From a bacterium (lineage in GTDB: Bacteria > Arandabacterota > Arandabacteria > Arandabacterales > JALGWA01), in the NCBI GenBank assembly GCA_050125095.1, contig JASFEA010000117.1:1-10209 (forward strand): 10,209 bases of DNA. Reading direction: 5' to 3'. Both the position numbers and the translations under genes were made by a program. Position 1 is the first letter of the stretch, and each line of letters begins with the position of its first letter. Below the pieces are notes generated by a model, which ran no database searches, was not told the origin of the DNA, and worked only from the letters and a program-made list of their open reading frames with translations. This document shows, in pieces, positions 1,409 through 10,200 of the stretch.

Positions 1409-1432
1409 TTGTGCATTTCAAGACCTGACCCC
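1409..1432 (-). repeat. Dispersed 24-bp REP-like intergenic repeat (reverse orientation)
   Basis: The reverse complement of ttgtgcatttcaagacctgacccc is GGGGTCAGGTCTTGAAATGCACAA, one mismatch from the copies at 3884 and 6148. Confidence 0.92.
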
Positions 1433-1718: not shown

Positions 1719-3878
1719 ATGAAGACCATGCTTGCCGTATTCGTATTGGGCGCGTTGATTGCGCTTACCGCACTGCAGGCTTATGCTATGCCCCTGTCAC
1801 CCAAGGCCTTGGAGAAAGCCCGCAAAGAGGGGGCACCCTTGTCGGACGAGCTTCTCGCCCCGCCCCCGCCATATGTGAACGCGCCGGGGCCGATCCCGCC
1901 CCTGGGGCATTCGGGAGCGTACAAGGCGCTTGTCATATGCATAGCCTTTACGGATTCGGGTTATACCTATTCGACCTCGTCATTCGACAACATGGTATTC
2001 GGGCCGTGGGGCACGGGCTCCATCAACGACTATTATACCGAGATATCCTACGGCAACCTCACGCTTTCGGGCAACACTTACGGCTGGTACACCGCGAGCC
2101 AGGGTCGCGACTACTACGGCGATAACCAGAAGGGCTGGGGAGCGTATCCCAAGAATGCCGCCAAGCTCGTGGAGGAGGCCGTTGACGCCGCCGAGACCGC
2201 CGGCTGCAACTTCGCGCTATATGATAATGACGGCGACGGTGAAGTCGAGTCCATGTGGATCGTTCACTCGCATGAGGGCTGCGAGACTAGCCTTAACTCG
2301 AACGACATCCAGAGCCACAAGGCCAAGATCAGCCAGATGGGCGGCACGGCCAGGGTCTATGACGGGGTCACCATCGACACATATATGTGCGTTCCCGAGC
2401 TCCAGTCGACGGCTCCGCTCCAGCATGTCCAGATCGGCGTCTATTGCCACGAGTACGGCCATGCGCTCGGGCTTCCGGACCTCTACGACGTCGGCCGCTA
2501 CTGCACGGGTACCATGGGATGGGGCATCGGCGCCTGGGGGCTCATGTCCTTCGGCGGCTGGGGCGGCGACGTGGTGACGCCTTCGAGCCCGTCGCATATG
2601 TCCTGCTGGTCAAAAATTCAGATGGGGTGGATCAACCCGTCCAGGGTGACCATGTCGTCCGGAACCAATATCACCCTCTGGCGTGCGGAGGACTATCCCC
2701 ATGCGTGGAAGGTAGGCATGGACATGCAGCACACCGAGTACTTCCTCGTCGAGATGCGGGACTCGGCATACGGTTTCGATAAGAGCCTTATAAAGAGCGG
2801 CGTGCTCATATATCACGTGGACGACGACCAGTACATGGAAAACGACTGTGAGAACGGCACCGGCTGCCCGAGTAACTACCATCTCATGGTCGCGCTCGAG
2901 CAGCCCGATAACAGCTACGATCTTGACTGCGGGGCCACGGGGAACTACGGCGACAGGGGCGACATGTACCCGTACGGCACGGTAGACTCCTTCGACCCGA
3001 CCACTTCGCCGAGCTCTTACACCAATGAAGGCACCAACACGGGCGTCTATATAAGCAACATCAACCCGGCGTCCAATCGCCTGTTCGCCGACATGTTCAT
3101 AATGGGCAAACCGCTTCATCCACAATGCGTATATGATGACGGCTATTACAACATCATGTACAGGTGGAGCACCAATGACGCCGGCTTCGCCGTGAAGTGC
3201 ACCCCCGCAAAATACCCGTGCGAAGTGCGGGGGCTCCGCATCATGATCGGCGACGCGTACTACCCGCACTTCCAGTGGAGAATCTGGGACGACAGCGGGT
3301 CGGGCGGCACGCCGGGAAGCCCGCTCACGCCGGTGCACACAGTGAATCCCGCGACCGTGAGCGAATGGGTGTACTGCGACGCGACGGGCGATACCGTGAT
3401 CGTCGACTCGGGAAGTTTCTGGGCGGTATACATCGAGTACAATAACTCCCAGATCTATACGGACAATGACTCGCCATGGTCGGGACGCACCATGACGTAT
3501 TACCTGGGGAACTTCTTTGTGGACAACGGCGCCTACGGCAATTACATGATACGCGCGGTGTACGATACGCTTGTCTGCGCCGGAGTGCCGGAGACGCCTG
3601 CGCCTGATGTCGTGGCGCTCGTGAGCCCGAACCCGTTCAGGGAAGAGACGGCTCTATCATTCGCGCTAGACCGCACGACGCACGTGGCCGTTATCGTCTA
3701 TGACATAAAGGGGCGGCGCATCAAGGAGCTCGCCCGCGGGCCGTTTGAGGCCGGGCGGCACTCGGTCGTATGGGACGGCACCGACGCGCGCGGCAATCCC
3801 GTGTGTTCGGGCATATACTTCTACAGGTTCATAACGCCCGTTAAGGCCCGGACCGGCAAGGTGACGCTGTTGAGATAA
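1719..3878 (+). CDS. Secreted M6 family (immune inhibitor A-like) zinc metalloprotease with C-terminal FlgD-Ig / T9SS-type sorting domain, 719 aa
   Basis: Start reassigned to ATG 1719, with SD GGAGGAGG at 1701-1708 and signal peptide MKTMLAVFVLGALIALTALQAYA|MP. M6 motifs: GSINDYYTEISYG, YDNDGDGEVE, GVYCHEYGHALGLPDLYD (HExxH at 2448), WGLMSFGGW (Met-turn), PSHMSCWSKIQMGWI, EYFLVEMR, GVLIYHVD. A YDDG-starting beta domain follows, then the CTD at 3621-3878 (SPNPF...VYDIKGRRIK...WDGTD...SGIYFYR...GKVTLLR). Confidence 0.93.
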   Translation: MKTMLAVFVLGALIALTALQAYAMPLSPKALEKARKEGAPLSDELLAPPPPYVNAPGPIPPLGHSGAYKALVICIAFTDSGYTYSTSSFDNMVFGPWGTGSINDYYTEISYGNLTLSGNTYGWYTASQGRDYYGDNQKGWGAYPKNAAKLVEEAVDAAETAGCNFALYDNDGDGEVESMWIVHSHEGCETSLNSNDIQSHKAKISQMGGTARVYDGVTIDTYMCVPELQSTAPLQHVQIGVYCHEYGHALGLPDLYDVGRYCTGTMGWGIGAWGLMSFGGWGGDVVTPSSPSHMSCWSKIQMGWINPSRVTMSSGTNITLWRAEDYPHAWKVGMDMQHTEYFLVEMRDSAYGFDKSLIKSGVLIYHVDDDQYMENDCENGTGCPSNYHLMVALEQPDNSYDLDCGATGNYGDRGDMYPYGTVDSFDPTTSPSSYTNEGTNTGVYISNINPASNRLFADMFIMGKPLHPQCVYDDGYYNIMYRWSTNDAGFAVKCTPAKYPCEVRGLRIMIGDAYYPHFQWRIWDDSGSGGTPGSPLTPVHTVNPATVSEWVYCDATGDTVIVDSGSFWAVYIEYNNSQIYTDNDSPWSGRTMTYYLGNFFVDNGAYGNYMIRAVYDTLVCAGVPETPAPDVVALVSPNPFREETALSFALDRTTHVAVIVYDIKGRRIKELARGPFEAGRHSVVWDGTDARGNPVCSGIYFYRFITPVKARTGKVTLLR

Positions 3879-3883
3879 TATCC

Positions 3884-3937
3884 GGGGTCAGGTCTTAAAA
3901 TGCACAACTGACCTGGGGTCAGGTCTTGAAATGCACA
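3884..3937 (+). repeat. Two direct copies of the dispersed REP-like repeat (31-bp period)
   Basis: ggggtcaggtcttaaaatgcacaa (3884-3907) and ggggtcaggtcttgaaatgcaca (3915-3937). The intervening ctgacct is complementary to the ggtcag core of either copy. Confidence 0.93.
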
Positions 3938-3950
3938 TGGGAGCGGACGC

Positions 3951-6140
3951 ATGAGAACCATGCTGCTGATTCTATCCTGTCTCATCGTCCTATTGGCAAC
4001 GCAGTCACAGGCAGGACACAATTTCGATGGGAAGGTCGCGGTTCATGTCTTACCGCATGAGGACAGGACCTGCTCCAAGGCTTTCCCGGTCATCTCCTAC
4101 TGCGGAGAGATAATCACCACCTATGAGGGATGCGGGGACATCGATTTCTTCCCTGTGTTTTTCAATCTCAATGGTTATACGGGCATGAACTACGGGATGA
4201 TATGGCCAGGGTCGGGCAGCTGCCTCTTCACTTCCTGCAGCGATTTTAAGATAGGTGACTTTACGTGGTCCGGCGGCGGCATGGCCCAGGTCTGGGGGGA
4301 GTGCCAGGGCGGTCCCGTCGGCATCCCGGGATGGGGCTGGATATCCTGCGACGAGCCCGGGCAAATCTGTGTTGTCGAGCACCCGGAGAATTATGTCCTC
4401 AGTGTGGCGGACTGCCTGTATCAGGAGGATGAAATGAGGAAGTCCTTCTGTGCGGGTGTCTGCGGGGCTGGGGGGATGGACCCGTGTGAAGAGTTACCGC
4501 CGTACACGGCCCTTCCAGTCGAAATCGCCTCTGGCGTTGGAGGAGAATGCATCGTCGTTGGGAATGACATAACATACACGATTCAGTACGAGAATCCGAA
4601 TCCAGGGCCCGTAAGCGGTGTTGTGCTGACAGCATCCTACTCTCCCCACACAGTCTTTCGGAATGCGAGCGGTCATGGTCAGAGGATCGGGGACTACGTG
4701 AGGTGGGATGTCGGCAACCTGGCCATCGGCCAGATGGGGTCGGCTAATTTCACCGTTCGGGTCAGTGAAGATGCACCATTGGGTGCCCTGCTAGGGGCCT
4801 CAGCTTTGATTGAGTGCATCGAGGTGCCCGACGGCACGGCAGGGGACACCACCATGGTGTGCCTTGAGGAGTTCGCACCGCTCGGACTCGATATCACCCC
4901 CGACGTGGGCGAAGGTTGCGCCTTTGTCGGAGACGACATGACGTACACGATTTCGTACGGCAACTCAAATCCGGGCGCCGTGAATAACGTCCTGCTCTGG
5001 GCGTTCTTTTCACCGCATACTATTTTCCAGAGCGCAAGCGGTAATGGCCGGGAAATCTATGGGAACCGGGTGGAGTGGAATTTGGGCAGACTGGTTGCTG
5101 GCGAGGCGGACTCGGCCCATTTCACGGTTCGCGTCAAGCAGGTCACAATGCCGGGCACGCCTTTGCCGGTCTCAGCCACAATAAAATGTAGCGAGGCTCC
5201 AGACGGCAGTGCTGCGGGAACCACTATGGTATGCGTTGATGAGTTGGCGCCCCTGGGGCTTGTAAAGGATGACGGCATTGGAGACGACGGATTCGCCATC
5301 GTCGGGGACTATATCACGTATAAGATCAGGTTCGACAATCACGGGAATGCCTCGGAGGTTTGTAATGTAAGAGTAGTGGACGACCTCGGGGATAAATTGG
5401 CTTTCGTGTCGGCTTCCGACGATGGCGTTTATGACCCAGGCCCCGGGACCGTCACCTGGGACACTGGAACGCTTTCGGGCGGCGCGAGTGACAGCGTGGT
5501 ACTAACCACGGCCGTGAGGTATGAAGCATATGACCGCGAGGAGATCATAAACTCATGTTCTGTGAAGGGAGACGAGACCCGTACGACGAGGGTTAATGAA
5601 CGCACCGAGGTTCTGCATGCCAAGGTGGCTCTTTATGTGCGGCCGCATGCTTACTGGCATAAGTGTGGCCAGGATATCCCACCTCTGGAAAGATGCCAAG
5701 ATATTCGCCATTTCGACCACTCATGCGACGTGACGGTATACCCCGTGTTCTTCGATATCAAGGGAGTGCAGGGCCTCGAGTACTCCATGGTATGGCCGGT
5801 TGGCTGGGGTAGCTGTACATTTATGAGCTGCAGCGACGCTACAATCGGGGATATAGCCTACCCGGGGGACCAGGTGGTGCAGATCTGGAACGAATGCCAG
5901 CAGCAGGACCTCTTCATCCCGGCGGTGTGCCACGTAATGGGAACGGGACCCGGGTTGATACGTGTGGAAGAAAACTGGGGTTCGGGCATGGTCGGCATCA
6001 CAACATGCAGAGGAAACAAATACAACGTCTTGGATAGATACCCCGGGGGCGTTTGCGGTGAGTATGTCAGACCGGCCTGTGGCGGACCGGCCAATGTAGA
6101 ACCCGTGACCTGGGGCAGGCTTAAGGCCATGTTCCGGTAG
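3951..6140 (+). CDS. Secreted Cys-rich protein with three DUF11-like (Ig-like) repeats, a duplicated N-/C-terminal domain and a C-terminal TWGRLKAMFR motif, 729 aa
   Basis: Signal peptide MRTMLLILSCLIVLLATQSQA|G and weak SD GGGAG at ~3939-3943. DUF11-like repeats: VGNDITYTIQYEN...VRWDVGNL, VGDDMTYTISYGN...VEWNLGRL and VGDYITYKIRFDN...NVRVVDDL...FVSAS...VTWDTGTL (~4510-5610). Homologous Cys-rich domains lie at ~4032-4487 and ~5622-6086. Confidence 0.88.
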   Translation: MRTMLLILSCLIVLLATQSQAGHNFDGKVAVHVLPHEDRTCSKAFPVISYCGEIITTYEGCGDIDFFPVFFNLNGYTGMNYGMIWPGSGSCLFTSCSDFKIGDFTWSGGGMAQVWGECQGGPVGIPGWGWISCDEPGQICVVEHPENYVLSVADCLYQEDEMRKSFCAGVCGAGGMDPCEELPPYTALPVEIASGVGGECIVVGNDITYTIQYENPNPGPVSGVVLTASYSPHTVFRNASGHGQRIGDYVRWDVGNLAIGQMGSANFTVRVSEDAPLGALLGASALIECIEVPDGTAGDTTMVCLEEFAPLGLDITPDVGEGCAFVGDDMTYTISYGNSNPGAVNNVLLWAFFSPHTIFQSASGNGREIYGNRVEWNLGRLVAGEADSAHFTVRVKQVTMPGTPLPVSATIKCSEAPDGSAAGTTMVCVDELAPLGLVKDDGIGDDGFAIVGDYITYKIRFDNHGNASEVCNVRVVDDLGDKLAFVSASDDGVYDPGPGTVTWDTGTLSGGASDSVVLTTAVRYEAYDREEIINSCSVKGDETRTTRVNERTEVLHAKVALYVRPHAYWHKCGQDIPPLERCQDIRHFDHSCDVTVYPVFFDIKGVQGLEYSMVWPVGWGSCTFMSCSDATIGDIAYPGDQVVQIWNECQQQDLFIPAVCHVMGTGPGLIRVEENWGSGMVGITTCRGNKYNVLDRYPGGVCGEYVRPACGGPANVEPVTWGRLKAMFR

Positions 6141-6147
6141 CAATCCC

Positions 6148-6171
6148 GGGGTCAGGTCTTAAAATGCACAA
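6148..6171 (+). repeat. Dispersed 24-bp REP-like intergenic repeat
   Basis: ggggtcaggtcttaaaatgcacaa, identical to 3884-3907. It begins 7 nt after the TAG at 6140. Confidence 0.93.
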
Positions 6172-6274
6172 TGGGGCCGCAGACAGATCGCGGTTCCTGA
6201 GATATAGTATTCCTGCGGCGCCACGGCCGATTAAGGAATCATCGGTTAATGTTCTCTCGCAGGAGGTGGGAGAA

Positions 6275-8434
6275 ATGGACGAGCGTCACCTTTCATCGCT
6301 ACCATTTGAATTGGCCTATCTTGCAATGCTCACGAGGCGCGGCGTCAAGCGCCTGAGCCGGTGGGAGCGAAGCCTCTCGCCCGAGCATACTGACCTCATC
6401 AGGAGCATGGGCCTTCATGTGAGGCCGGTCACGCGGCGCACGCTCTTCGGAAGAAAAGTGAGCGAGACCGTGTTTGCGGCGCGAGAAGCAGCCGCCGATT
6501 TCTATGTCTCCCGTTTCGACGGCAAGCGTCTCTCGTCCTCTCCGGAGGAGACCAGGCTCAAGGGTTTCATGTTCGGGTATCCCTCATGCTGCGTGGAGGA
6601 GTTCATACGCCACCCGTATTCTAAGAACGGCCTGAGCCGGAGGGACCAGCGCATCCTCTTCCACTGGGCCTGCCCGGGCTGCAAGGTGACTCCCGGCCTC
6701 ATCAAGGAGTACGGGGACATATACCGCGAGTGCGCGAAGGTACTCGTAAGGGCACCGGCGCACCACGCGACTTCTGCCGCGAGCAGGAAGCGCGATGCAT
6801 TCCCGGTACTGCGGCTCCTGCGCCAGGCCTCCGTCCCTGCCGCCGCGGGCCTCGCAGCCATGTTGCTGCTGCCGGCCGCGGCCCGCGGAGACGATCCCCA
6901 CTGGCTCGCAGTTCCCGACGATCTCGACAGCGACTACGCCAGCTTCGCCGAGGAGGTTCTGGCCGGCTACTCCTGGAGGGGGGCATACAGCGTGAGCGAC
7001 AGCCTCCTCGACGGCGTTTATCTCGCTCATTTCCTGCACGCCATGATCGAGAGCCTGCCGGATACGCCTCAGACCGACCAGCCTTATAAAGAGTATGAGT
7101 TTGTGTACGGCATCGAGACATGCGATGTCTGTGGAGCCGATTTCAACATGGGCAGCATCCGTATCGTAAACCCCCAGCGCGGGCTCGAGATGGAGTTTCC
7201 CATCATAGGGCTTCACTATCTCGAGCACGGCAGTCTCTCCTATATGGGAACGGTGCACGACGGCCGCGTTGATCTCTATGCGCTAAAGCGCGTGCTTCTG
7301 GCCGGCGACGGATCCCATCACCTTACCTATGAAGGCGACGCCGACGCCGACGGGCTTTTCCCGGAGGAAGAGGCGTATCTGGGCACCAACCCCACTGACC
7401 CCGACAGCGATGATGACTCGGTGAAGGACGGGCCCCAGTATTTCGAAGGCCTGGTGGAGGCCCTCAGCCAGGTCTCCCGGACGCCTTCGGATACCGAGCC
7501 CTATATAGAGGAATGGTTCGCTCGCGGCAAGGAACAATGCGAGATCTGCGGCCAGTGGTTCAACATGGGCTATGTCGTGGTTAACAATACCAGCGAGGGC
7601 CTCTCGCTCATGCTTCCCTATGTGAGCGTTCACTGCCTCACCCACGGGTCGGCGGTGTTCAACGGCACGACAAACGACGGCCGCATTCTCCCGGTGCTCC
7701 TAAACACGGCCTTGAGGGGCGACGGCCAAATGCACTGGCTCGAGGTCGAGGATGACGGAGACGGAGACGGCCTCAAGGACGTGGAGGAATCGCACTTCGG
7801 TCTCGATTCCGGCCTCTACGACTCCGACGGCAACGGCGTGCCCGACGGGCCGCAACTGGCCGGCATCATGCACGATATCATCGCCGGACTCCCGGAGGGC
7901 GAGACGCCTGATACCACTTATGTGGTTCACAACTACACCGTGGGGTCTTACCCCTGCCTTATTTGCGGCGAGGACATCAATATGGGATTCATGGAAATAG
8001 TGAATCCGCAGAACGGGACGAGCATTTCACTTCCCTATTACAACCTCCACTTCATGGAGCACGGCAGTTTCGAAACCGACCGCTCCGACATATATGCGAG
8101 GATCGACCCCAGGGACATCGATGCCGTCATAGATGCGAGCGCGCATGTTCCGCAGGGTCCTGCACAGGCGAGCCCGGTGCAGGTGTTTCCCAACCCGTTT
8201 ACGGAAAAGACGCGGGTTGTGCTTAACCTACCCGTGGCTGCCGCGGTGGACGTGAGCGTATTCGACGTCAACGGGCGCAGCGTCTTGAGTAAACGAACGG
8301 AAGCCGAAAAGAGGACCGAGTTCTTCTGGTACGGCCGGGACGCCGAGGGCAATGCCCTGCCGCCGGGAGTATACTTCTTCCGCTTCGACTTCGACGGCAC
8401 AACGCTCACCAGGAAGGTGATGTTGCTGAGGTGA
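6275..8434 (+). CDS. Multidomain protein: GYPxCC (DUF483-like) N-terminal domain, internal signal/TM-like segment, 3 x 139-aa repeats with DxDxDG and CxxC...HxxxH motifs, C-terminal FlgD-Ig / T9SS-type domain, 719 aa
   Basis: Start reassigned to ATG 6275 (SD AGGAGGT at 6261-6267). Motifs: GFMFGYPSCCVEEF (6563-6604), FHWACPGC (6659-6682), RLLRQASVPAAAGLAAMLLLPAAARG|DD (ends 6889). Repeat CxxC codons lie at 7121, 7538 and 7955. The CTD spans 8183-8434 (VFPNPF...VFDVNGR...WYGRD...PGVYFFR...RKVMLLR). Confidence 0.85.
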   Translation: MDERHLSSLPFELAYLAMLTRRGVKRLSRWERSLSPEHTDLIRSMGLHVRPVTRRTLFGRKVSETVFAAREAAADFYVSRFDGKRLSSSPEETRLKGFMFGYPSCCVEEFIRHPYSKNGLSRRDQRILFHWACPGCKVTPGLIKEYGDIYRECAKVLVRAPAHHATSAASRKRDAFPVLRLLRQASVPAAAGLAAMLLLPAAARGDDPHWLAVPDDLDSDYASFAEEVLAGYSWRGAYSVSDSLLDGVYLAHFLHAMIESLPDTPQTDQPYKEYEFVYGIETCDVCGADFNMGSIRIVNPQRGLEMEFPIIGLHYLEHGSLSYMGTVHDGRVDLYALKRVLLAGDGSHHLTYEGDADADGLFPEEEAYLGTNPTDPDSDDDSVKDGPQYFEGLVEALSQVSRTPSDTEPYIEEWFARGKEQCEICGQWFNMGYVVVNNTSEGLSLMLPYVSVHCLTHGSAVFNGTTNDGRILPVLLNTALRGDGQMHWLEVEDDGDGDGLKDVEESHFGLDSGLYDSDGNGVPDGPQLAGIMHDIIAGLPEGETPDTTYVVHNYTVGSYPCLICGEDINMGFMEIVNPQNGTSISLPYYNLHFMEHGSFETDRSDIYARIDPRDIDAVIDASAHVPQGPAQASPVQVFPNPFTEKTRVVLNLPVAAAVDVSVFDVNGRSVLSKRTEAEKRTEFFWYGRDAEGNALPPGVYFFRFDFDGTTLTRKVMLLR

Positions 8435-8540
8435 TGCTGCCGACGTAAGCCTTCATAGACAACAACTTACCCCTGCCCCCTATACTCTATCTCTGCGCTT
8501 ACCTTTATGCGAATAAAAGTGACTAGGTTTTAAGTATGCA

Positions 8541-8569
8541 TTGACCGGGGCGTCGGCATATGCTATAAT
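8541..8569 (+). promoter_or_regulatory. Near-consensus sigma70 promoter for the paralog pair
   Basis: TTGACC (8541-8546), 17-nt spacer, TATAAT (8564-8569), with extended -10 TGn (tgc, 8561-8563) and AT-rich upstream sequence (aataaaagt...ttttaagt). Confidence 0.85.
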
Positions 8570-8690
8570 GCATTGGCTAAGGTGTGTTCGCCATATTCAC
8601 CCCTAGGCCTCGGCTCGTGAGAAAGCGGGAGAATTGGTTGAATAATTGTCTCTGCACTTGCCGGGAGTGTAGGCGAAGGAGGTGAAGAGC

Positions 8691-9401
8691 TTGAAAAGAG
8701 CTGCGATTCTGTATTTCTTGGTTGTTTTTGTAATGGCAGTAGCGGTCTACGCCGACGCTCCGATCAACGATATTTACCAGTCACCTGGTGATATCAACGA
8801 GGGAAGGTTTAGCGAGGCTTATATCGGCGGCGGCCAGGGCCAGGTGGACAATACCGTGCACGCTGAGTCCTGGGACGGTTACGACCTGGGTCTGCAGTGG
8901 AAGGTGCTCTGTCCCGTGATGGCGTATCCGCCTGAACTCATCGAGGACACGGTGGACGAATACGGCAACGGGCACAGGGTTTATCGCACTGTCTACGCGA
9001 ACGGGGAGTTCTGGCTTTCGGGCACCGGTGCGTGGAGCAGCGGCGATGCGTACTACTCGGGCGACCTCGAGCACTACGTGCATACGACCACTATGCAGAT
9101 TGCCGGGGGCGAGGTAGTCGCCTACAACACGAACGCGCAGATGACCGGGCGTTTCCACGGTTATCAGGAGACGTGCATGCAGCTGACGATCGCCAACGCG
9201 GTCCTCGTAGGCATGGCTGGTGTGCCGCCGGCTGACTATCCGGTCCTCAAGGACGGGACCTCTGGCAGTTGTCTGGATGCCGCTGGAGGTTACATCGGCG
9301 AATGGGGCAATGTCTGGGCGATCACCATGATCATCCAGGGTTGCGAACCGACAGCGAGCGAGGAATCAAGCTGGGGTGCCATCAAGAGCTTGTATCGCTA
9401 A
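8691..9401 (+). CDS. Secreted protein of unknown function, paralog A, ending SWGAIKSLYR, ~236 aa
   Basis: SD AAGGAGGTGA (8676-8685) overlaps the GTG at 8682, so TTG 8691 is the more plausible start. Signal peptide MKRAAILYFLVVFVMAVAVYA|DA. Colinear similarity to 9439..10128. Confidence 0.88.
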   Translation: MKRAAILYFLVVFVMAVAVYADAPINDIYQSPGDINEGRFSEAYIGGGQGQVDNTVHAESWDGYDLGLQWKVLCPVMAYPPELIEDTVDEYGNGHRVYRTVYANGEFWLSGTGAWSSGDAYYSGDLEHYVHTTTMQIAGGEVVAYNTNAQMTGRFHGYQETCMQLTIANAVLVGMAGVPPADYPVLKDGTSGSCLDAAGGYIGEWGNVWAITMIIQGCEPTASEESSWGAIKSLYR

Positions 9402-9438
9402 AGACAGTTTACACTAACTGGTCGAAGGGGGTGAAATA

Positions 9439-10128
9439 ATGAAAGTAGTTATCGCTCCGGCTGTTGTATTAGCACTTCTTGTGGCAATGCCGGTGCTGGC
9501 CGGCACGCCGCTCGACGGGACGTACAAGTCCCTGGACGGCGACATGGCCAACGGCAGGTTCAGCGAATCATGGTATGGTGGCGGCCAGGGGCAGATCGGC
9601 AACACGGTGCACTCGATGTCGTACGATGTCACGGGCGCCGTAAACGAGTGGAGGATCTGGTGTCCATCGCTGGCTGAGGCGCCTGTCTTGATTGCCGACA
9701 ATCGCGATGCCAACGGTACGGGCCAGGTAGAGTATCAGTCGACTTATCAGGGCGGGTACTTCTGGCTTACCGGCACAGGCCCATGGGGAACCGGGGACGC
9801 TGAGTACACCGGTTACTTCACAATCTATATCCATAACACCACATTCATCTTCTTCAACAACATTCCCATCAGCTACACAACCAATGCACAGATGGAGGGT
9901 TTCTTCGACGGTTATTGCAAGTGCATTCTGGTAGTGGCCAATGGGGCGAGTGTGGGTAATGGTGCGCAGCCCTCGGACTACCCGGCGTTCCTCGAAAGCG
10001 ACTGCGACGAGGACACTGGCCTTACAGGCGAGTGGGGTACGGTGGCTGACATCACCATGACGATTTACCAGTGCGCCAGCGCGGCGGAACAGTCGACCTG
10101 GGGCACTATCAAGTCGCTTTACAGGTAG
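9439..10128 (+). CDS. Secreted protein of unknown function, paralog B, ending TWGTIKSLYR, 229 aa
   Basis: SD AAGGGGGTGA before ATG 9439. Signal peptide MKVVIAPAVVLALLVAMPVLA|G. Shares GRFSE, GGGQGQxxNTVH, WxxxCP, FWLxGTGxW, TNAQMxGxFxGY, PxDYP and GEWGxVxxITM with the upstream gene. Tandem TAGTAG stop. Confidence 0.9.
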   Translation: MKVVIAPAVVLALLVAMPVLAGTPLDGTYKSLDGDMANGRFSESWYGGGQGQIGNTVHSMSYDVTGAVNEWRIWCPSLAEAPVLIADNRDANGTGQVEYQSTYQGGYFWLTGTGPWGTGDAEYTGYFTIYIHNTTFIFFNNIPISYTTNAQMEGFFDGYCKCILVVANGASVGNGAQPSDYPAFLESDCDEDTGLTGEWGTVADITMTIYQCASAAEQSTWGTIKSLYR

Positions 10129-10157: not shown

Positions 10158-10200
10158 AGGGCGGCAGGTGTTTGACCGGGCACCTGCCGCCTTTATATTT
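10158..10200 (+). terminator. Rho-independent terminator
   Basis: Perfect 11-bp stem GGCGGCAGGTG (10160-10170) / CACCTGCCGCC (10181-10191) followed by TTTATATTT, about 30 nt after the stop codon. Confidence 0.88.

Follow-up and report, generated by a model that had tools for sequence, protein, structure and literature searches.

Why should three exported proteins encoded on one contig, the largest of them dissimilar to the other two, end in nearly the same short peptide? The window analyzed here is a stretch of 10,209 nucleotides that makes up the whole of contig C117, from a genome of 3.35 Mb that is 91% complete, and the element in question is a C-terminal tag of about 15 residues carried by three of its genes. 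We find that this tag closes Sec-type proteins as a terminal module, in alternation with the type A C-terminal domain (CTD) of type IX secretion (T9SS), and that it is found only in genomes with T9SS genes. The tag is real and apparently undescribed. Because it takes the place of the CTD and tracks the T9SS genes, we lean, on sequence evidence, towards reading it as an alternative T9SS signal, much shorter than the known CTD.

The tags and the proteins that carry them (hereafter passengers, with lengths in amino acids, aa) are as follows.

6096..6140, plus strand: tag 1, VEPVTWGRLKAMFR followed by the stop codon (from translation), with the linker CGGPAN before it.
9357..9401, plus strand: tag 2, SEESSWGAIKSLYR followed by the stop codon (from translation).
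10084..10128, plus strand: tag 3, AEQSTWGTIKSLYR followed by the stop codon (from translation), where mature residues 200-206 are predicted to form a helix and the linker before them has low confidence.
3951..6140, plus strand: tagged passenger of 729 aa, with a signal peptide and two copies of an unnamed, Cys-rich domain of ~160 aa, between which lie three DUF11 repeats.
8682..9401, plus strand: tagged passenger of 239 aa as listed, paralog of the gene at 9439..10128.
9439..10128, plus strand: tagged passenger of 229 aa, with a signal peptide and a small domain, predicted as a beta-barrel, that belongs to no known family.

Translation bears out the three tails that an earlier note, made from the sequence alone, had described at these positions, with Trp as the ninth residue from the end in each. 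The same note held that the 729-aa protein resembles the small ones only in its tag, and indeed, with the tag removed, its best comparison with the 229-aa protein has an E value of 0.26. The 239- and 229-aa proteins are paralogs with 44% identity. The TTG at 8691 is the likelier start of the 239-aa gene, judged from the GGAGG upstream, and Candidatus Eisenbacteria is one source of named homologs for the 229-aa protein.

We scanned the genome for the motif [ST]W[GS]x[ILVMF]K over 60,934 six-frame stop-to-stop segments. The motif lies within 14 residues of the stop in 58 segments and elsewhere in 4, and the internal rate predicts about 0.8 terminal matches; chance is therefore excluded as the source of the terminal motif, even though one of the 58 (on contig C49) resembles a chance match. 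A slightly wider pattern yields 61 tagged open reading frames, and the fuller consensus in this genome is G-P-(S/T)-A-(T/V)-E-P-(T/S)-T-W-G-x-I-K-(A/S)-(L/M)-(Y/F)-R. Since synonymous codons vary between the copies, the conservation is at the level of protein and not that of a DNA repeat. The tag extends beyond this assembly: a DNA pattern matches 13-45 times in each of the 15 genomes of the phylum (15/15), its reversed control 0-1 times, and the 48 matches of the 229-aa protein (itself included) comprise 42 with a strict tag, 5 variants, and 1 fragment.

The 58 tagged passengers longer than 40 residues fall into 29 families by BLAST. Among the 55 tagged genes that have an intact start and reach 100 residues or more, 52 begin like signal peptides; the rule applied is crude and is also positive for 680 of 2271 other genes (30%) and for 104 of 134 CTD genes. 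Altogether, these counts agree with the view that a modular C-terminal tag stands on signal-peptide proteins with diverse passengers. The tag is not confined to the families of the window, is seldom internal or without a signal peptide, and has not been assigned to a described system. In one respect the earlier description does not generalize: the Cys that it placed before each tag occurs, 8-14 residues before the Trp, in just 35 of 61 tags. Tagged passengers are small (median 290 aa, against 720 aa for CTD proteins). Among 20 that were scanned, Pfam matched 6 (X25, CBM20, lamin tail, beta-helix, PD40, and a Spy/CpxP-like domain) and no catalytic Pfam domain was found; the recognizable passengers are mostly surface-type binding modules, namely the first five of these.

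Two sets of unusual tagged sequences were also observed. A family with Phe in place of the Trp (C52:7376-8014, C52:2-940, and C167:1128-2288) has two members with lipoprotein-like starts and a 5'-truncated third with one internal and one terminal copy. Three tagged short segments (C80:4965-5570, C15:27815-28450, and C124:6-191) lie downstream of an in-frame TGA, and in two of them a signal-peptide open reading frame is in frame upstream.

What, then, does the tag replace? Both neighbors of the 729-aa gene terminate in T9SS type A CTDs:

3621..3863, plus strand: T9SS type A CTD of the M6 metalloprotease gene (1719-3878), over the TIGR04183 cut-off.
8183..8422, plus strand: T9SS type A CTD of the gene at 6275-8434, TIGR04183 score 35.6 bits (cut-off 23).

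Across the genome, a CTD gene adjoins a tagged gene in 20 of 61 cases, compared with 62 of 489 control genes, and 12 of the 58 tagged passengers have paralogs that end in a CTD. Among nine tag/CTD pairs, similarity runs up to the junction in five, which involve three distinct CTD partners, while the other four are unaligned over the stretch compared. The domain family of the 729-aa protein gives the clearest picture. We classified 150 of its 179 representatives by their ending and found 70 with a strict tag, 24 with a variant tag, 11 with a type A CTD, and none with both; the remaining 45 have neither, and many of these are fragment-like. Because the 11 CTD proteins have further domains between the family domain and the CTD, the two are best described as alternative endings rather than as exchanges at a shared junction. 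A search with the second domain of the 729-aa protein gave just 5 close relatives, and the 2 inspected are both tagged. In Bacteroidota, one and the same FN3 domain is followed by the tag in a single-copy family and directly by a CTD in long proteins (four of five by the CTD profile, the fifth by eye).

The two endings also share residues. CTDs in this genome end in T-x-K-(V/M)-V-L-L-R, with Lys at position -6 in 133 of 171, and the tag has Lys at -5 and a final Arg or Lys in 47 of 49. In a set chosen by passenger, 91 of 94 tags have Lys, under a pattern that would also have accepted Arg, Asn, or Gln, and all 94 of 94 have Trp, where Phe was permitted at that position in the strict pattern only. 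According to PMC10994853, the near-invariant C-terminal Lys of type A CTDs is functionally important, and its main role may lie elsewhere in transport.

The genome carries the corresponding machinery. Profile searches gave 501 bits for SprA and 542 bits for PorU, seven PorV-family genes over the cut-off, and no PorP-family gene over the cut-off; our own profile detects 171 terminal type A CTDs, and TIGR04183 scored 150 of 165 candidates. Of the GldKLMN/PorKLMN motor and ring, GldM and GldN were the parts searched for, and neither has a match in this 91%-complete assembly, where divergent forms could escape; the GldM model is positive in 49 Bacteroidota genomes, and the GldN model has no positive control.

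To follow the tag across genomes, we profiled 201 Bacteroidota genomes and a further set of 61 genomes that bear the tag (among them two duplicate pairs, and with ten loci excluded by a size limit), all within this superphylum. SprA is present in 162 of the 201 and GldM in 49, which leaves 113 of the 162 SprA-positive genomes without a GldM match. The tag pattern occurs in 66, in 64 of them as a single copy; three of these matches are chance-like, and a control pattern was positive 11 times. All 66, and all 74 genomes with the single-copy FN3-tag protein (one full-length copy per genome, counting rows that reach the tag), are SprA-positive, and none of the 39 SprA-negative genomes carries either. 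The FN3-tag protein is found in 73 of the 113 SprA-positive, GldM-negative genomes, compared with 1 of 49 GldM-positive ones. In the further set, SprA was detected in 58 of 61, and the other three have PorU-family matches, two of them over the cut-off. Fisher values overstate the strength of this profile, because kin are not independent. Among 31 genomes, PorV-family genes number 4-19 in those that are GldM-negative and 2-5 in those that are GldM-positive, with or without the tag.

The FN3-tag protein itself emerged from a pattern scan of species genomes, which gave at least 121 loci and whose taxonomic range is that of a sample. Among the matches listed were Eisenbacteria, Krumholzibacteriota, Latescibacterota, and Zixibacteria records, and 58 matches formed one family of ~135 residues with a signal peptide, an FN3 domain, and the tag, whose listed records are labelled Ignavibacteria, Kapaibacterium, Calditrichaceae, KSB1, Chlorobiaceae, and Bacteroidetes. 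A profile of the family has 5,074 hits, FN3-only proteins possibly counted, and the tag stands at the end in 120 of 120 among the matches listed, a result that is partly circular since the profile contains the tag. The family has no Pfam or NCBIfam name, its gene is surrounded by housekeeping genes, and the cultured Cyclonatronum proteinivorum has a member (WP_124245596.1). A second small conserved tagged family, of about 140 aa and with no FN3 match, was seen at loci L025, L033, and L112, one of whose records is labelled Zixibacteria; at the first two, its gene has a Rex-like gene on one side and an anti-sigma antagonist/kinase pair on the other.

Several further features of the window and genome were noted beside the tag. 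The gene at 6275-8434 (plus strand) has an odd architecture when translated: its N-terminal ~170 aa look cytoplasmic, and after them come a signal-peptide-like stretch inside the protein, three CxxC...NMG...HxxxHGS repeats (possibly metal-binding, with no library match), acidic calcium-binding-like repeats, and then its type A CTD; it may consist of two fused genes or have an internal start. A 22-bp intergenic repeat occurs at 3884-3906, 3915-3937, and 6148-6170 (plus strand) and at 1410-1431 (minus strand), and is present in 106 copies on 65 contigs, often as tandem or inverted pairs, like repetitive extragenic palindromes or miniature inverted-repeat transposable elements; it was considered as a carrier of the tag and rejected, being linked to 3 of 87 gene ends only. 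By eye, ~7 tandem copies of a 15-bp unit directly follow the first gene (about 1157-1265), and an 11-bp inverted repeat with a T-rich run, resembling an intrinsic terminator, follows the last tagged gene (10160-10200). Elsewhere, triplets at C2:43803-49330, C2:55136-64107, and C71:8785-15612 each combine a PorV paralog with a TonB-dependent-receptor-like gene and with one whose product ends in a short K-F-x-x-x-R motif; one of these adjoins TonB/ExbD/ExbD/ExbB-like genes (by eye), and the triplets may supply energy to a T9SS that has no GldM. On contigs C65, C107, C12, C24, and C32, large CTD genes are directly followed by their own divergent PorV-family gene, like the cargo/shuttle pairs of type B.

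Does the tag form a unit separate from the passenger fold? In an AlphaFold2 model of the 229-aa protein built from 48 sequences, a confident beta domain, with a predicted local distance difference test score (pLDDT) of about 95 in most blocks, is followed by a linker and a helix at pLDDT 64-68. The AlphaFold2 model of a second tagged family likewise shows an FN3-like sandwich and a terminal helix at pLDDT 71-78. Fold searches returned a middling small-barrel match for the former (2q03_B; Z 9.3, root-mean-square deviation 3.1, 115 aligned) and generic FN3 only for the latter. Since confidence drops at the tag, and since the tag follows unrelated folds, we take it to be independent of the fold; packing of the tag into the passenger is unlikely, as judged from pLDDT rather than from contacts. 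The amphipathic helix that the earlier note had proposed is thus upheld in part: a helix is predicted, at lower confidence than the domain before it, but its helical moment (1.36) barely exceeds the strand-periodicity moment (1.24). The same note saw no transmembrane helix, and this stands: eight mostly amphipathic residues follow the Trp, and a later hydrophobic segment of any kind occurs in 2 of 55 tagged proteins.

No library model matches the tag. TIGR04183 and PF18962 are absent from the three window proteins and from 47 tag peptides, and NCBIfam, Pfam, and PDB sequences supplied no name for tag or proteins. The ESM Atlas gave only unnamed clusters, whose structural neighbors are mostly CTD-bearing proteins. 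We searched motif spellings and the literature on these taxa and on T9SS and found no description of the tag; subscription papers and supplements were outside the scope of this search, and proteomics tables may already contain the proteins.

Among known signals, the type A CTD (TIGR04183, PF18962, and the FlgD_ig-like PF13860; read by PorV and cut by PorU) resembles the tag in position. Both stand at the extreme C-terminus after a linker of small residues and Val, and both share a near-terminal Lys, a final Arg or Lys, passenger domains, genomes, and often neighboring genes. However, the CTD is a seven-strand sandwich of 70-100 residues, whereas the tag is a predicted helix of ~15 residues with no PNP or GxY motifs, no profile match, and smaller passengers. 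The short CTDs of Prevotella intermedia (PMC11969387) have 43-55 residues, three beta strands, and motifs B, D, and E; they show that T9SS signals can shrink yet keep the cleavage motif and the basic terminal motif, although the tag has no strand motifs. The type B CTD (TIGR04131, served by PorP/SprF shuttles; PMC12618676) is a precedent for a second signal with its own barrel shuttle, also where a gene has no shuttle linked to it, but has 150-235 residues to the tag's ~15, and TIGR04131 has no match on the tag proteins.

LPxTG, PEP-CTERM, and GlyGly-CTERM are short modular C-terminal tags with a transmembrane helix and a basic tail. The present tag resembles them as a short module on many unrelated exported proteins, and differs in having no transmembrane helix and no NCBIfam match. 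As the defining features that were tested are absent, we do not place the tag in the type A or type B CTD families or in the transmembrane tag families. Nonetheless, on this evidence, it appears to work like a CTD.

How might such a signal operate? A passenger would be exported by Sec and fold in the periplasm. The tag, as a helix of ~10 residues with Trp, Ile, Leu/Met, and Tyr/Phe on one face and a near-invariant Lys, would then be bound by a T9SS component, most likely a PorV-family barrel at the SprA translocon, and the small passenger would be moved to the cell surface. The (S/T)-(A/G)-(V/T) linker may be cut by the PorU sortase, as in CTD cargo, which is the weakest step. The CTD linker in this genome is A-G-V and that of the FN3 family is S-(G/S)-(V/I); the cleavage consensus published for CTDs is PT/GI (PMC11969387). 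Site-like linkers precede 49 of 57 FN3-family tags, compared with 28 of 61 other tags, and 24 of the 61 tags of this genome, compared with 389 of 4120 random windows.

Searches for the reader were negative within their range. No PorV subfamily is confined to tag-positive genomes (this genome, three tag-positive, and two tag-negative ones, by BLAST scores without a tree), and as a rule no cognate shuttle lies beside tagged genes; within this genome, a tagged gene precedes a PorU-like gene at one of nine C25-like genes. Around the single-copy gene, 40 loci with flanks of up to 1.5 kb and 9 longer loci, annotated by eye, showed housekeeping genes only in the part listed. A predicted complex of this genome's canonical PorV (alignment of 29) and the last 31 residues of the 729-aa protein (alignment of 47) scored 0.01 in two runs, for which controls were not folded, and counts neither for nor against a reader.

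A number of observations weigh against reading the tag as a T9SS signal. The tag has ~15 residues and is a predicted helix, whereas the T9SS signals described in the sources consulted are folded beta domains, which span at least 43 residues (PMC11969387); as a minimum, 22 residues in two beta strands are given (PMC5445135). The Lys of the tag is shifted by one residue relative to the CTD Lys, and the 5'-truncated protein on contig C108 has a CTD-like stretch and then the tag. One passenger is similar to the periplasmic Spy/CpxP, 4 of 55 tagged proteins have lipobox-like starts, and one protein has an internal copy. At the position that is Ser in the FN3 family, Pro is found in 24 of 61 tags from the multi-copy lineages, which does not match the small residues typical of PorU sites. 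All four PorV paralogs of the tag-positive genome G171 have counterparts in the tag-negative G183. The FN3-tag protein was absent from a search of 15 genomes of this phylum and is missing from 40 of the 113 SprA-positive, GldM-negative genomes. Finally, co-occurrence with SprA comes cheaply because SprA is near-universal in these phyla, and the SprA-negative genomes, to judge by their sizes, probably form one clade, so that the profile is confounded by kinship.

The best-surviving alternative is that the tag is a T9SS-linked docking peptide, akin to dockerin, that would bind a T9SS component or CTD-bearing cargo and hold small accessory domains in the periplasm or on the surface; the FN3-tag protein would then be a hitherto unrecognized subunit or regulator of GldM-free T9SSs. 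A single conserved copy in 74 genomes among housekeeping genes looks more like a component than like cargo, and the small passengers, the lack of catalytic domains in those scanned, and the Spy/CpxP-like and lipoprotein-like members all suit a docked protein. However, the tag stands in for the CTD at one common junction and follows a linker like that of the CTD, which is simpler to explain by an export or processing signal, and we regard docking as rather unlikely.

More doubtful is the idea, put forward in the earlier note, that a separate, undescribed export or anchoring machine, inherited alongside the T9SS in the same superphylum, reads the tag. Sorting systems that are independent typically show such exchange of position between one signal and another, and the tag does exchange position with the CTD; it is, moreover, structurally unlike any CTD, and the co-occurrence with SprA is confounded by kinship. 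Against this, the searches described above revealed neither a tag-specific PorV paralog nor a conserved neighbor gene, and the tag is seen in 0 of 39 SprA-negative Bacteroidota genomes, so that the proposal of a dedicated machine is not supported and the evidence points to the existing T9SS. A reader-free amphipathic helix that binds membrane or lipopolysaccharide, of the lipid-binding kind known from the membrane-targeting sequences of MinD and FtsA, would suit a predicted helix with a hydrophobic face and basic residues, but is highly improbable given that such helices usually tolerate swaps (here Lys in 91/94 and Trp in 94/94), that the helical moment is modest, and that the link to SprA would be left unexplained.

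Returning to the T9SS signal, we tentatively suggest a broader reading in which the tag is an old, fold-independent helix signal of 10-15 residues that belongs to T9SSs without a GldLM motor. It would survive as the FN3-tag protein, which may itself be part of that machine, in Ignavibacteria, Kapabacteria, Calditrichia, KSB1, and related classes; genomes with the GldM motor would mostly have lost it, in Eisenbacteria-like phyla it would have spread to dozens of passengers, and its near-invariant Lys would correspond in its contact to the terminal Lys of type A CTDs. We hold this combination to be possible, though with less confidence than the T9SS signal alone.

If the tag is indeed a T9SS signal, a short peptide in that role would change the view of how the translocon recognizes its cargo, and a minimal secretion or display tag would become available. 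In several uncultured phyla, dozens of hypothetical proteins in each genome would also be assigned a destination. The presence of the FN3-tag family in at least one cultured species makes the tag testable, and its near-exclusion from GldM genomes offers a handle on T9SSs that have no detectable GldM.

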